Origin: a plasmid
Sequence record: NZ_CP044066.1
DNA: 64,000 nucleotides
Reading direction: 5' to 3' (one strand)
Position numbers and translations under genes: made by a program
The notes under the pieces: generated by a model
Told to the model about the DNA's origin: nothing
Seen by the model: the letters and a program-made list of their open reading frames with translations, nothing else
Database searches by the model: none
In this document: positions 1,534 to 49,239 of the stretch, piece after piece
Position numbering within the stretch: the stretch's first letter is position 1
Layout: the number at the start of each line of letters is the position of its first letter

Positions 1534-1611
1534 GCACTCCTGAAAAATGACGGAGTGCGACCCGGACGGGCGGCACCCGTCTGGGTAAGGGAAAGGGAAT
1601 AGATACTTCGG

Positions 1612-1635
1612 GGTCGATGCGTCAGAGACGCGGGT
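1612..1635 (-). repeat. M1 palindromic motif copy 1 (GGTCGATGCGTCagaGACGCGGGT)
   Basis: One of 11 same-orientation copies. About 80 nt upstream of the start of the 1533 gene. Confidence 0.6.
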
Positions 1636-1706
1636 AAAACCAGTTTTCGACAGCCGCGTGGGCTGTCGGAACATGGCTCTGCCAGGTTCAAAGGGTTGGC
1701 GTATGG

Positions 1707-3137
1707 CTACGCAAAGAGATCGTCAGTGAGCCAGTTCATCGCCGGTTCCGCGGCAGCCAGCGAAGGTGCCGCCGAATCCTTCGGTCCGGCGGTACCAGCG
1801 TCGAACTCCATGTCGACCAGACTGGCGACGACAGGCGGGCCAGTGACGACCTGCGCGGCGCGCTCCAACTGCACAGCCACCGCTTGCTCCGGCAATCCGC
1901 CAAGCACCCGATCGGCGATCGACTGTGCGTCTAGCGTCTCGAGCATCGACAGGCCGTCGATCAACGGATTTGCCTCCACGCCCGTCAGCTCACACCAGCG
2001 CGTAAGCTTCTCAGGCAACGTGGCCGCGCGGCTGATGCCTTCCGCACGGCTGCGCACCGCAGGCAGGACGCGCGCTTCCAGCTTGATCTCCGCACTGGCA
2101 CTGAACAGCGCCAGAATGGCGTCGCGATCGACCAGCTGGCGATGCTCCTCGTTGACCGTCCATCGTACCCGCACGAACTTGTCGGCGGCGCCTGCGGCGA
2201 CCTCGGTGAGCTTCACCATGTCTGGCGGACCATCGAAGTCCACGCATAGCGTCTCCCGCGCAGGCGTCTGCACCTGCGTGGCAGCGGCATGGCCAGGACT
2301 GACCTGCCATTGCAGATAGCCCTTCGCACCGATCTCGCCATAGTGGAAGCGCCCGATAGAACCCGGATACGCGACCACCCTGCCCTCACGCTCCCATTGC
2401 TGCGCGCGATGGATGTGGCCGAGCATAAATGCATCGCAGTCTGCGTCGAAGAGCGCACCAATGGTGAACTCGTGATCGAAGCCCGCCATTGGTACGCCAT
2501 GCTCGGTCTGGCAGCCGTTGACGGTGCCATGCGAGACCCCGATGGTGCGCACACCATGTGCCCGCCATAGACGATTGATGGCACCGGCGGCCCCAAGGTA
2601 GTCAGCCAGGTGATCGCCCACCGCTGTTGCTGCACTGGCGACGCCGGCAGCAGCTGCAAGCACCGCCTTGTTGACCGTAGGCACGCAGGTGAACACGACA
2701 TCGGGCGTGCCGCGCAGCGCAAGCAGGACTTCGATCTCCTCGGGAGCAAAGACGGCCCCATCCGACGGCACGAACTGCCCGTCGCAAAGCGCAACCTGAT
2801 GGATCCTATCCGCGACATACACGGGGTGTTGCGATCCGATCAGTCGGAATAGATCCAGCGTCCCGGGAGGTTCGTGACTGAACGTACCCTGCAGCATGAG
2901 TACCGGCATGTGCGCGGTCAGTTGGTGAATGCGCCGCGCGAGCGCCGAAAGCGCGGGCGTGTGAGCGTCGAGACGGTGATCGGTCGAATCGCCCGACACC
3001 ACACCGACGTGGCAACCGGCATCGATCGCGTCGCCGGCGGCGAAGCCGAAGCAGCGGTCAGCCTCGGCCAGGTGGCCCGGCGAATAATGCAAGTCCGAGA
3101 AATGGCCCACGAGCAGGCTCTCGCCTTCTTTGAGCAT
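1707..3137 (-). CDS. SbcD/Mre11-like calcineurin-type metallophosphoesterase (nuclease subunit)
   Basis: Start MLKEGESLLVGHFSDLHYSPG (phosphoesterase motif I) and later GHIHRAQ. SD GGAGG lies before the ATG at 3137. Confidence 0.6.
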   Translation of the reverse strand: MLKEGESLLVGHFSDLHYSPGHLAEADRCFGFAAGDAIDAGCHVGVVSGDSTDHRLDAHTPALSALARRIHQLTAHMPVLMLQGTFSHEPPGTLDLFRLIGSQHPVYVADRIHQVALCDGQFVPSDGAVFAPEEIEVLLALRGTPDVVFTCVPTVNKAVLAAAAGVASAATAVGDHLADYLGAAGAINRLWRAHGVRTIGVSHGTVNGCQTEHGVPMAGFDHEFTIGALFDADCDAFMLGHIHRAQQWEREGRVVAYPGSIGRFHYGEIGAKGYLQWQVSPGHAAATQVQTPARETLCVDFDGPPDMVKLTEVAAGAADKFVRVRWTVNEEHRQLVDRDAILALFSASAEIKLEARVLPAVRSRAEGISRAATLPEKLTRWCELTGVEANPLIDGLSMLETLDAQSIADRVLGGLPEQAVAVQLERAAQVVTGPPVVASLVDMEFDAGTAGPKDSAAPSLAAAEPAMNWLTDDLFA

Positions 3138-3233
3138 GATGTACCTCCAAGGGAATGTGCCGGCATTGCGGCGAGAAAGGAAAAAGGGAAGCCGCATGGC
3201 TTCCCCTGAAGTGCCGGCACGAAGCTGGCGGAA

Positions 3234-4445
3234 TTACATGGAGACGTCTGCCGCGATTGCAGCAACCTGTTCGCGGAACGCGAACGGGTTGGTGAGCGCG
3301 GTGCGCATCTCCTCGAGCAGCGCGCGCACATCGTGATCGCGTTTGGTCCAGCCGCGGCCGAAGCTGGCCACAGCGTAGAGGCGGAGTTGGTCGCGGCCCT
3401 CCTGCGTCGCAAGGCCGAGACGGGCTACGAGATCCTCGAACTGGCTCTGGGTATCCTCATCCTCCGACGTCTCGGCAGGCGTTTGGCCCGACAGCTCTTC
3501 GCTGACGCGATCAGGCTGCGGTGGGTCTTCGTCGGTAGCAAGCGGCGATTCCAATGCCGCCACGGCCTGCGTCGCCAGCTCGAGGGCCGGGGCCGCTCGG
3601 TCAGAGCCGTCGAGAAGCGCGCCGATATCGATCTCAGCGTCCAGCGTGATGAGCCATTGCATCTGGCGCATCGCGTTGCCATTCTCATCGATCCGGCTGA
3701 TCTCGGCTTCCTGCTTCGACATCCAGAACTTGACGCCCACCAGCTTGCCACGTGCCATCGCGACGGTCTGCATGGCGGCATATGCCTTCTGCAGAACGTA
3801 GATGGAGCTTGTAGGCATCTCGATGAGGCCGAGCCCGAGGATGTGCGGGATCGAAAAGTAGAACTTGGCCGACAAATTACACGCCCCCGACTGGTACTGC
3901 GGGCATGCCTGCGGATCGCAGAGGCCGTCCGGGATGTGGTCATCCTGACGCAGGATGATCGTGCGGCCGCCAAACATTCGTCGGGCCCGGCTGGCGCGCT
4001 CGTCGCGCACTGGCGGCGCGTAGCGCTTGCAGTACCGCCGGCCATCGCTGCCGTACTCGGAGAAGTACTGGCGTCCGCTTGCGGTCCACGCAACGAGCTG
4101 GTTGGGCATGTTGCTCAGCCAGTCGTCGAAAGCGAAGATCACAGGAAAGCGCCACAGCCGATGACCCTGGCCGTCTCCACGGTCTTCACCGTAGCGCTGC
4201 ACGATGTCTTCTGCAACTGCCGGGTTCGCGAAGTCCGAACCGCGGCATGTGAACCACGGAACGTTCTTGGGATAAAGCGCGTTCTTGATTCCGGTGGCGC
4301 GCTGAATCTCAGTACCGATGTGCTCGAACGATTTGCCCTGCGCGAGCAGCGCGTCATGAATGGCAACGGCTTTGGCATTCTCGCGCGCAGTCTTGGTAAG
4401 TACCTTAATTCCAGGGCGAATGGTGCCGATGATTGGCGGCCGCAT
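3234..4445 (-). CDS. hypothetical protein (~404 aa)
   Basis: Long ORF with high GC3 and no family recognised. The start Met is uncertain (4445 or 4508). Confidence 0.45.
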   Translation of the reverse strand: MRPPIIGTIRPGIKVLTKTARENAKAVAIHDALLAQGKSFEHIGTEIQRATGIKNALYPKNVPWFTCRGSDFANPAVAEDIVQRYGEDRGDGQGHRLWRFPVIFAFDDWLSNMPNQLVAWTASGRQYFSEYGSDGRRYCKRYAPPVRDERASRARRMFGGRTIILRQDDHIPDGLCDPQACPQYQSGACNLSAKFYFSIPHILGLGLIEMPTSSIYVLQKAYAAMQTVAMARGKLVGVKFWMSKQEAEISRIDENGNAMRQMQWLITLDAEIDIGALLDGSDRAAPALELATQAVAALESPLATDEDPPQPDRVSEELSGQTPAETSEDEDTQSQFEDLVARLGLATQEGRDQLRLYAVASFGRGWTKRDHDVRALLEEMRTALTNPFAFREQVAAIAADVSM

Positions 4446-4456
4446 GGGCCGCTCTT

Positions 4457-48015: not shown

Positions 48016-48085
48016 TGCATTACTCCTGAGAGAGAGCCTGCCGAGGTAAAGATCCGCCCTATGGGACGAACCCACAGGGCAGAAG

Positions 48086-48113
48086 ATAAAAAGAAGCCGC
48101 CTCGAGGGCGGCG
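48086..48113 (-). terminator. Rho-independent terminator after the primase gene
   Basis: Minus orientation: GCCGCCCUCGAGGCGGC followed by UUCUUUUU. Confidence 0.5.
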
Positions 48114-48118
48114 ACGAA

Positions 48119-49189
48119 TCAGGCTGGGACGACTTGCTGCGACATCTGGCGCAACTGATGAACGGTGCGCCATTCATCGCAGAAATCGGTGCCACGCACC
48201 TTGGGTCGGTGCATCACGACCTTGAAGCCGGCTTGCCGCAAGCGCTTCTGCAATACCAGTGCATCGGCCATGCCGGGCGACTTGTGGGTCTCCGGATCAA
48301 TGGCATCGAAATCGGCAAAGATATGGACCGTTTCGATGCCAAGGCCTTGCGGCACCACGAACTGGCTGAGCAGCACCCGGTTCAGGCAGTACCAGGTGGG
48401 GACGCCGAATTGCATGTATGCGGCATACGCCGTTTCCATGCCTTCGGCAATTCCGAGCTCACCATTGCGTGGCGCCATCAGCCGCACTGCGCCGCCCGCC
48501 GGCGGCAATGCCGAAACATCGTTGCGCTTGGCAGGTAGCACCTCTCCGTCCGGCGTGATGACGATGGCTTTCTCCGGCTTGCGGGGATCCAATGACGTTC
48601 GATGCACGGTCGCCATACGGCCGTCAGGCAGCGTGAACTGCGCAACGATCGTAGGGTATCGGCCGACCACCCGCTTCTCGTACCAGTAGTCCTGCACTGC
48701 GAGCCTCAAGGCCTGCGGCCGTGGTGCTCGCAAGCCCGGAATGCGGGCCGCAAGATATCGCATGGCATGGTCGCCAGCGGACAAGCATGATGCGGTCGCC
48801 CACTGCTTCTCGATCCTGCGCAGCTTGGTCGCCGAGTCGGCCCGCGTTCGAGCGGGGCTGGCCCCGGATGTCGCAGGCACGCGGGCTTCGATCGGAGCAC
48901 CGTTGAGGATCCGCTTCAACTCCGAATACGACATTTCGGTGTAGCGGCGGACAAGCTCAAGCCCGTCGCCTCCGGCCGGACTGCCGTCATTGCACTTGCG
49001 ACACACCCAGTCACCGCGACCACGGTTGCGGGTATAGGTGAAGCGGTCTTTACCGCCGCACATCGGACAGGGGCATGGACGCCCGCGCCAGAAGGCATCC
49101 GTCAGGACGCCGGCTGGCAGGTACTGAGCAATGAGGGCGTCCCACTGCTCAGACTTCCAGCTCTTAACAATGTCACTGATAGCTTTCAT
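48119..49189 (-). CDS. zinc-finger + toprim-domain DNA primase-like protein
   Basis: Zn motif CPMCGGKDRFTYTRNRGRGDWVCRKCN followed by a toprim-like region. Start MKAISDIVKSW. Confidence 0.55.
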   Translation of the reverse strand: MKAISDIVKSWKSEQWDALIAQYLPAGVLTDAFWRGRPCPCPMCGGKDRFTYTRNRGRGDWVCRKCNDGSPAGGDGLELVRRYTEMSYSELKRILNGAPIEARVPATSGASPARTRADSATKLRRIEKQWATASCLSAGDHAMRYLAARIPGLRAPRPQALRLAVQDYWYEKRVVGRYPTIVAQFTLPDGRMATVHRTSLDPRKPEKAIVITPDGEVLPAKRNDVSALPPAGGAVRLMAPRNGELGIAEGMETAYAAYMQFGVPTWYCLNRVLLSQFVVPQGLGIETVHIFADFDAIDPETHKSPGMADALVLQKRLRQAGFKVVMHRPKVRGTDFCDEWRTVHQLRQMSQQVVPA

Positions 49190-49213
49190 GGGATGACTCC
49201 TTTTGGGAGTGGT

Positions 49214-49239
49214 GGGTCGATGCCTGAGACAGGCGAAGG
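49214..49239 (-). repeat. M1 motif copy 10 (variant GGGTCGATGCCTGagaCAGGCGAAGG)
   Basis: Directly abuts the SD hairpin of the primase gene. Palindrome arms co-varied to GCCTG/CAGGC. Confidence 0.5.

Follow-up and report, generated by a model that had tools for sequence, protein, structure and literature searches.

Modular leaders with a predicted Shine-Dalgarno switch or throttle before conserved backbone genes of Cupriavidus megaplasmids

A 64,000-nucleotide stretch of plasmid DNA (sequence record NZ_CP044066.1; its full length is called the window here) raises the question of whether a set of unrelated genes on its minus strand shares one device for the control of translation. A preliminary description of this DNA had noted a family of hairpins that take up the Shine-Dalgarno (SD) sequence just before the start codon, and had read their differing stems and common architecture as a sign of selection on structure. 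The analysis described here upholds that core and extends it. The SD hairpin is the last of up to four modules in leaders that precede conserved megaplasmid backbone genes, and we predict with moderate confidence that these leaders act as a default-off translational switch or throttle.

The Shine-Dalgarno hairpin and its leader

All eight of the hairpins that had been spelled out earlier are present, each on the minus strand with an ATG just after it. A strict test was applied to this hairpin (module D), which requires 5 bp or more in a perfect helix, an SD that lies in or adjoins the 3' arm, a loop of 4-15 nt, no more than 6 nt to the start codon and a dG of -5 or lower. Of 26 minus-strand backbone gene starts 12 passed, and of the window's 31 remaining gene starts 1 did (Fisher p=2e-4); shuffled leaders gave a mean of 0.54 passes and a maximum of 5 in 500 shuffles. 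One of the twelve, at 15506, is probably due to chance and was left out of the family. Folding z-scores of the leaders range from -2 to -4.9. The D helices are perfect and GC-rich, with 5-11 bp and -6 to -19 kcal/mol, and their loops of 4-15 nt are pyrimidine-rich and poor in G (37% U, 35% C, 18% A, 10% G), so the U-rich loops of the preliminary description are better called pyrimidine-rich than specifically rich in U. Further D hairpins lie before the starts at 31779, 20554 (ParB), 12422 and 51198, with a weaker one at 4508. The hairpin that had been assigned to a gene at 1533 is present, and the gene itself starts at 1530. The one before the primase-like gene (49189) is kept in relatives but is small, with only 5 bp, a dG of -4.8 and a loop of CAAAA rather than UUUUG. 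At PRTRC-E (18794), the suggested UCCU..AGGA pairing does not give a stable hairpin, and the AGGA is missing in two orthologs.

Folding of whole leaders with RNAfold recovers the hairpins of all four modules, in the order A-B-C-D on the gene strand and followed by the AUG. Module A consists of a C-rich 5' flank, a hairpin of 5 bp with a 3-nt loop (mostly GCGUC-NNN-GACGC) and an invariant AUCGAC(C). Module B has a hairpin of 5-6 bp that varies in sequence and, after it, CAUCU or CAUUU and a U/C-rich tract. Module C combines a C-rich tract (e.g., CCAACCC) with a GC-rich hairpin of 9-11 bp in the form CCC..GGGG-loop-CCCC..GGG, and module D ends 0-6 nt before the AUG.

The stems differ among paralogous leaders and the architecture is kept, with co-variation in the orthologs of ten related plasmids and in other Burkholderiaceae. 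Orthologous starts were placed in these ten plasmids by tblastn, and the same modules precede the orthologous genes there, with compensated changes in the stems. For instance, the D helix of gene 32082 reads AUGGCUCC/GGAGCCAU in the window and AAGGCUCC/GGAGCCUU in pHG1 and C. taiwanensis, that of gene 12422 goes from GGGUGUCC/GGACACCC to GGAUGUCC/GGAUAUCC in an ortholog, and UGGCC/GGCCA of gene 13119 becomes GGUUGCC/GGCAACC in B. vietnamiensis. Covariation was counted on helices taken from the window sequence only and mapped onto the orthologs by simple pairwise alignment. In this count 84% of ortholog cells pair, compared with 43-50% when the partners are slid, and the changes that keep a pair are one-sided in 185 cases and two-sided in 66. 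G.U pairs (64) outnumber A.C mismatches (14), an excess which favours the sense strand as the one that folds. Together with the strict test, this covariation supports sequestration of the SD by structure-selected hairpins over a co-oriented set of genes, as first proposed.

Complete A-B-C-D leaders precede genes 12422, 13119, 14515, 20554 and 32082; these and all other leader features lie on the minus strand. The leader of gene 12422 spans 12423-12533 (A 12506-12533, B 12486-12503, C 12454-12482), with its D hairpin at 12423-12450 adjoining the AUG. That of the SlyB-like lipoprotein gene 13119 spans 13122-13237 (A 13210-13237, B 13190-13207, C 13149-13172, D 13122-13143), with a sigma-70 promoter just upstream, and that of gene 14515 spans 14520-14625 (A 14598-14625 with the compensated stem GCGCC/GGCGC, B 14582-14595, C 14544-14567, D 14520-14542). 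Before the PRTRC ParB gene 20554, a promoter and a 157-nt leader with an extra hairpin between B and C occupy 20559-20746 (A 20685-20712, B 20669-20682, C 20588-20615, D 20559-20583). The 67-aa gene 32082 has its leader at 32084-32195, where A (32169-32195) takes the form GCGC-uacu-GCGC and is followed by B (32153-32166), C (32111-32138) and D (32084-32109).

Shorter arrangements are also found. Gene 1530 (172 aa, upstream of an SbcC-like ATPase) has modules A, C and D, namely an A module at 1612-1639 (UUUUACCC-GCGUC-ucu-GACGC-AUCGACC), which comes after a hairpin and U run and is without a promoter (class ii), and a C-D pair at 1534-1586 (C 1560-1586, D 1534-1558 as GCACUCC-11 nt-GGAGUGC) that is kept in 6 plasmids. 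Modules C and D alone, in intercistronic or post-terminator positions, precede genes 10870, 11333, 13726, 31779 and 51198. The intercistronic pair of gene 10870 lies at 10872-10920 (C 10894-10920, D 10872-10892) and that of the DUF3085 gene 13726 at 13731-13784, while the pair of the DUF4313-like gene 11333 (11340-11385) comes directly after a strong terminator-like hairpin at 11399-11422. At gene 31779 (31783-31836), D is GCGUUUCC-12 nt-GGAAACGC, and at gene 51198, the first of the ssb/primase block (51202-51263), it is an 11-bp helix, GGUCUUCGGAC/GUCCGGAGACC, of -19 kcal/mol. The short leader of the primase-like gene (49196-49242) has A (49215-49242, compensated stem GCCUG/CAGGC) and then directly the 5-bp SD hairpin (49196-49210). 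The weaker hairpin of gene 4508 (4510-4535) pairs UUCCU with AGGAG within CGUU..AACG, and its orthologs are stronger, at -11 to -13 kcal/mol.

Module A and the start of the transcript

In an ungapped alignment of 52 distinct copies of hairpin A, a set that had been selected for the hairpin, 100% of cells pair, and 3 of the 5 pairs have two-sided changes with not a single one-sided change. The two-sided stem variants are GCGCC/GGCGC, GCGGC/GCCGC, GCGCU/AGCGC, GCGCA/UGCGC and GCCUG/CAGGC. A sequence-only model of module A gave 173 matches in the 870 kb searched. The best 150 of these hold 129 distinct sequences in which, again, 100% of cells pair, and hairpin A is therefore a real single-strand structure and not just a conserved sequence. 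The recognised variant stems among the lower-scoring matches are all compensated, and in the window, as at the ten plasmid loci, every match lies on the gene strand. For the sequence GCATCGAC, 16 copies were counted in the window where 5.5 would be expected, with 14 of the 16 on the minus strand; ten of these 14 stand upstream of genes with the hairpin before them, and the other 4 lie in coding sequence without the hairpin.

The 5' ends of the transcripts can be placed on pMOL28 with the map of transcription start sites (TSSs) for C. metallidurans CH34 by Grosse et al., which lists 5,763 TSSs from one growth condition (PMC9045368 supplement 2). The pMOL28 coordinates of the published table match NC_007972.2. 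In the pMOL28 locus, hairpin A of every promoter-associated A module begins exactly 7-8 nt after a TSS (n=5). These TSSs are, in order of rank among the 5,763 (PMC9045368), TSS_90669-5 at parB2 (ortholog of 20554; rank 34), TSS_83384-5 at the slyB-like gene (ortholog of 13119; rank 39), TSS_93740-5 at Rmet_6245 (ortholog of 32082; rank 47), TSS_84558-5 at Rmet_6234 (ortholog of 14515; rank 102) and TSS_75119-5, which heads the leader with the sbcD RNA, 316 nt upstream of Rmet_6222 (rank 1119). The RpoD-dependent promoter scores published for these five are strong in four cases and medium in one (PMC9045368), and matching -35/-10 boxes are present in the window, e.g., TTGAAA-17-TATTCT at 20718-20746 (-).

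The sbcD RNA of Rfam (RF01757) is found at 4853-5007 (-), full length and with 148.8 bits, inside a long leader headed by A and B at 5243-5287 (A 5260-5287, B 5243-5257), the ortholog of which begins at TSS_75119-5. Because this leader begins with A-B and its pMOL28 ortholog has a mapped TSS, the sbcD motif would belong to the transcripts of the leader family. It shares the plasmid backbone and the strand with the other leaders and lies within an A-B-headed one, but it is a separate 155-nt structure, and its Rfam model contains none of modules A-D and matches no other leader.

Three A modules, with upstream contexts at 12533-12600, 9155-9200 and 1639-1680 (-; upstream ends approximate), have no promoter-like sequence, and the CH34 table shows no TSS at their pMOL28 equivalents. 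Module A is thus not confined to the 5' ends of transcripts. These copies follow a long hairpin of variable sequence and GUUUUACCC, with a junction of the form (G)UUUUACCC, e.g., CUUGCCCAAGCC..GGCUUCGGCAAG, an arrangement that resembles a terminator joined to the leader after it. One of these contexts adjoins the A and B modules (9109-9155; A 9128-9155 with the compensated stem GCGGC/GCCGC, B 9109-9122) of the 300-nt DUF932 leader. In that leader, a C hairpin and a D-like hairpin adjoin an open reading frame (ORF) of 6-9 codons at 9011-9034 (-), which reads MNPSFSQ* in the window and MQSTLL*, MHLQFLL* or MYLTLL* in relatives. Its position is kept in six loci and its stop codon (..CUGUAGCC) in all but one ortholog. 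The small ORF has no upstream SD, and the DUF932 start follows ~180 nt further on with its AGGAG unpaired. The ORF may encode a leader peptide or may mark an RNA element that is conserved.

Another unit, at 45652-45778 (-), has A (45751-45778) and B (45733-45748) behind a -10-like TATTCT and reaches a clear intrinsic terminator (CCGGaaauugaaCCGG-CAUUUUUUU, 45652-45676) ~100 nt on. It lies ~540 nt upstream of an integrase-domain gene, with orthologous A boxes in five other loci, and may be a short A-box RNA or an attenuated leader. When it was tried as an activator of the leaders, RNAduplex scores did not rise above those of shuffled sequences, the method being a weak one. A long-range pairing partner for the AUCGAC box was also sought, and no consistent site was found. 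A divergent A-like module (GCUC-auu-GAGC-AUCGAAC) is located at 51656-51681 (-), upstream of gene 51621.

An alternative pairing and how it may be read

The anti-SD arm of D (its 5' arm) has a second potential partner in the same leader, since it can pair with the inner 5' arm and loop of the hairpin C that precedes it. Thus, GGGGCAC of hairpin C can pair with anti-SD GUGCUCC at gene 14515, GGGGCACG with CGUGCUCC at gene 10870 in the window and GGGGCAUG with CAUGCUCC at the same gene in pMOL28, GGGCCA with UGGCCC at gene 13119 and GGGCAAC with GUUGCCC at its Burkholderia counterpart, GGGACAC with GUGUCCC at gene 12422, GGGAACC with GGUUCCC at gene 20554, and GGGAAAC with GUUUCCC at gene 31779. 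Over ten paralog groups, cognate pairs of C and anti-SD arms reach -12.5 kcal/mol compared with -8.5 for non-cognate pairs, a total that none of 100,000 permutations equals (p<1e-5). A second set of 22 distinct arms from A-box loci of other Burkholderiaceae, partly orthologous to the first, gives -11.0 versus -9.1 (p=5e-5). When this 1:3 helix is forced with the SD arm left free, the 3' arm of C folds on itself and one long, well-formed hairpin results (the ON fold), 2.6-13.8 kcal/mol above the OFF fold made of C and D. The leaders thus combine two pairings that exclude each other, and in one of them the SD would be free, as in translational attenuation of the ermC/cat type.

These observations can be assembled into a predicted sequence of events. 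Host RpoD-type promoters fire strongly, and the transcript begins 7-8 nt before hairpin A. The C and D hairpins would form first during transcription and, as the more stable fold, would hold initiation low by default. On refolding, the 5' arm of C would capture the anti-SD arm, the 3' arm of C would fold on itself and the SD would be freed. Each C-D pair would then be a two-state switch or throttle that uncouples very high constitutive transcription from protein output, and the D hairpins probably throttle translation of very strongly transcribed plasmid genes. Candidate triggers include binding of a protein or RNA to the conserved C-rich tract or to hairpin C, action of the 30S subunit together with S1, and processing of the RNA. 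Because they are conserved, A and B may be a shared element for recognition, processing or pausing at the 5' end of the transcript. A bolder and rather doubtful version has one trans-acting factor bind hairpin A with its AUCGAC, or the C-rich tract with hairpin C, and flip a dozen bistable ribosome-binding sites. If it were true, single-stranded DNA-binding protein, primase, ParB/PRTRC and anti-restriction-type proteins could be made in a burst in a new host and silenced later, with promoters constitutively strong throughout. That the D loop itself serves as the handle for a trans-acting RNA-binding protein, as had been suggested, is pure speculation.

Several results weigh against a regulated switch. 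The OFF fold is the more stable one in every leader, by 10-14 kcal/mol in 6 of 10, and spontaneous switching is therefore unlikely. A trigger was sought among the scanned backbone proteins, partners of AUCGAC and the candidate short RNA, and none was identified; Pfam and NCBIfam show no RNA-binding domain in the scanned backbone proteins, where the only regulator-like matches are a weak AcaB-like match and a FlhC-domain protein. The alternative pairing is in part a matter of G-run and C-run composition, with only the gene-specific extension demonstrably cognate, and in leaders of the GGCUUUCU/GGAAAGCC type (Paraburkholderia, Caballeronia, Pararobbsia) it is not at the same place. On the side of covariation, 430 ortholog cells are broken, many of them probably through the crude pairwise alignment. 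A MAFFT alignment of 42 C-D modules yielded no common structure in RNAalifold, since the helices of different paralogs are shifted in register. A covariance model, which the preliminary description had proposed as a check, worked for module A in its sequence-only form; for C-D it was abandoned, since hairpin C was misregistered even in a hand-picked seed of 12 sequences with some spacers trimmed. Finally, the high TSS read counts could mean stable short 5' fragments and not high synthesis of messenger RNA.

A serious rival, if a somewhat unlikely one, is that C and D are static elements that lower initiation and shield the messenger, or its processed cistrons, from RNase E without regulated refolding, the alternative pairing being a by-product or folding aid. 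The constant advantage of the OFF fold speaks for this, as does the presence of C-D between cistrons and after terminator-like hairpins, where stabilisers are expected. The CAUCU or CAUUU after hairpin B resembles the site preferences of RNase E, and a very strong promoter joined to a weak ribosome-binding site would plausibly keep noise low in the expression of partition and maintenance genes. What such an element explains poorly is the co-varying, cognate match between the C loop and the anti-SD arm, which costs sequence freedom in an otherwise unconstrained loop. Two other explanations are less likely than this one. Control could lie in transcription, with A and B as a recognition hairpin that resembles nut or RAT sites and a weak intrinsic terminator (attenuator), where termination or read-through decides and D is secondary. 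A lenient terminator scan does pick up the B hairpins at 13190-13207, 14582-14595 and 9109-9122 with the U-rich tracts after them, but B stems have only 5-6 bp, the U tract starts 2-3 nt past the stem, and the regional count of terminator-like structures (14) is not above that of shuffled sequence (10.2 +/- 3.9). Likewise, hairpin A with its invariant AUCGAC looks like a protein-recognition site, yet no antiterminator-like protein was found among the scanned backbone proteins. The A-box unit that ends at the 45652-45676 terminator would fit, and very high TSS counts could come from short attenuated RNAs; the C-D modules without A and B would be left unexplained, and we regard control at this level as improbable.

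Still further down the scale, and very improbable in our view, is the idea that the elements serve as primase or ssi sites, hairpin promoters or HUH-nuclease sites in the single-stranded DNA that is transferred from a leading region during conjugation, and not as RNA. Mapped RNA 5' ends 7-8 nt before hairpin A and behind canonical -35/-10 boxes, the placement of D relative to the SD and start codon, and the excess of G.U pairs over A.C mismatches all go against it, even though ssb, primase, ParB, methylase and anti-restriction-type genes in a strict single-strand orientation resemble such regions and hairpin A, with its 5 bp, 3-nt loop and conserved bases 3' of the stem, has something of the look of a small hairpin recognition site.

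The predicted translational switch or throttle can also be set beside known systems, although no specific family has all of its defining features in the A-B-C-D leaders. The ermC and cat attenuators and translational riboswitch platforms likewise have the SD in the 3' arm of a hairpin, an upstream segment that competes for the anti-SD arm, and mutually exclusive OFF and ON folds that govern initiation. However, most C-D modules here have no conserved leader peptide before them. Class i leaders, which run from TSS to AUG, contain no conserved upstream ORF, and the DUF932 leader, the only one with a conserved 6-9 codon ORF, has it after and not before its C-D module. Neither a recognisable aptamer nor an Rfam match to one was found; A and B are conserved but small (a 5-bp hairpin and a 7-nt box). 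Classical attenuators use a 2:3 pairing, whereas here the pairing is 1:3, in which the 5' arm and loop of the preceding hairpin compete and segment 2 self-folds, and about a dozen copies of the design occur within a single plasmid regulon. ROSE and fourU thermometers share the SD-occluding hairpin close to the AUG, and the preliminary description had compared the family to them. Thermometers are typically short, imperfect and marginally stable helices with weak, mismatched or U-G pairs, which melt between 30 and 42 C. The D helices have no such mismatched, marginal character, being perfect and GC-rich with 5-11 bp, and they are accompanied by a further hairpin upstream and by a second, co-varying fold. 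Rfam gave no ROSE or fourU match. Because the helices are perfect and GC-rich, a thermometer is unlikely, and a temperature logic is not evident. FinP/traJ (FinO), repZ-repY of IncI/IncB and hok/sok are plasmid-borne too, with two adjacent stem-loops before the start, a ribosome-binding site within a stem and activation by refolding. They act on one regulator gene, whereas many unrelated genes are involved here. For the antisense promoter of the cis-antisense systems FinP/traJ and CopA/repA no counterpart was found: a prefix search of the one-condition CH34 table over 827xx, 832xx, 844xx, 789xx, 905xx and 936xx, at or near four leaders and gene starts, gave no pMOL28 TSS on either strand. No FinO/ProQ-like gene was found among the scanned backbone proteins.

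Host plasmid, distribution and significance

The preliminary description had taken the region for part of an integrative and conjugative element. Sequence comparison instead identifies the host element as a Cupriavidus pauculus megaplasmid of the pMOL28/pHG1 backbone family. The window, with a G+C content of ~62%, matches at 9000-21000 the conserved backbone of Cupriavidus megaplasmids, including pMOL28 (C. metallidurans CH34), pHG1 (C. necator H16) and pENH92, with Burkholderia plasmids as more distant matches, and 24 of the 31 records that match this region are typed as conjugative. A minus-strand protein at 13805-14515 is 100% identical to a hypothetical C. pauculus protein annotated as plasmid-borne, on a 249-kb contig. 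By this synteny and this identical protein, the region is a megaplasmid backbone and not a chromosomally integrated element. The minus strand carries the PRTRC cassette (14712-20554; ParB, E, F, B, A and ThiF) and genes for DUF932, DUF3085-like and DUF4313-like proteins, an SbcCD-like nuclease block, ssb and a primase-like protein. Leaders are borne by ssb, the primase-like gene, the ParB/PRTRC cassette, DUF932, DUF3085, DUF4313 and the SbcCD-like nuclease. Refined starts for ParB (20554), a methylase (31161), DUF932 (8833) and genes 31779 and 32742 agree with the annotated starts of orthologs.

Some features of the neighbourhood are of interest in their own right. Strong terminator-like hairpins stand between consecutive genes of an apparent single operon at 18822-18850, 18038-18059, 14681-14708, 11399-11422 and 9278-9300 (-), each ~25-30 nt before the next start codon, e.g., at the ParB/PRTRC-E junction and just upstream of PRTRC-F. 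The backbone is broken by a cargo or insertion block at 21620-30000, in which G+C falls to 0.56 at 26-28 kb. Its contents include a MocR/PdxR-like regulator (21620-23164) as well as orfA (25379-25774) and orfB (24540-25421) of an IS2/IS3-family element. A ParM/actin-like protein is encoded at 46058-47089 (+), where related plasmids have, at the corresponding place, a gene with the annotation PRTRC system protein D, and a HU-family DNA-binding protein of the backbone at 42790-43080 (-). The protein of 53453-54628 (+) has an FlhC domain (Pfam E=4.7e-8), and that of 5419-6051 (+) matches AcaB faintly, short of the Pfam cut-off (E=0.009). The two resemble activators of conjugative elements of the AcaCD/SetCD type and may regulate transfer genes.

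An exact A-box pattern scan with one genome per species returned at least 120 stretches. Among the matches listed, about half are in Burkholderiaceae (Cupriavidus, Paraburkholderia, Caballeronia, Burkholderia, Ralstonia, Pararobbsia) and the remainder is scattered over GC-rich taxa at about chance frequency, by a rough estimate. An SD hairpin adjoining an ORF within 135 nt accompanies 31 of 75 of the listed matches in Burkholderiaceae compared with 2 of 58 elsewhere (p=1.4e-7), and many of these Burkholderiaceae leaders have new D sequences, such as GGCAGGUUC/GAACCUGCC and GGGCAGGCUCC/GGAGCUUGUCC. Judged by these pattern matches, the leader family occurs across the Burkholderiaceae. In Rfam 15, the sbcD RNA is the sole match at gathering score, and at E<=5 nothing overlaps A, B, C or D. 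The leaders are not described in the searchable literature on PRTRC, the pMOL28/pHG1 backbone, DUF3085, DUF932, the sbcD RNA or TSSs, a scope outside of which subscription-only papers on pHG1 and pMOL28 fall, and the A-B-C-D family is apparently previously undescribed. The kind of mechanism is itself known; new is a multi-copy, modular leader with a built-in SD switch that extends over a plasmid regulon.

The family would thus add to current RNA databases an RNA that is missing from them, with about ten copies per plasmid and across Burkholderiaceae, and the orphan sbcD RNA motif of Rfam would gain a defined transcript. It would also provide synthetic biology in Cupriavidus necator with an RNA element that can be put to a direct test. 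The plasmids concerned (pMOL28, pHG1, pRALTA-like) carry genes for metal resistance, hydrogen oxidation and symbiosis, and three such plasmid promoters have TSS signals in the top 50 of 5,763 in C. metallidurans CH34. A leader with an SD switch would explain how constitutive transcription and controlled protein levels go together in these megaplasmid backbones.

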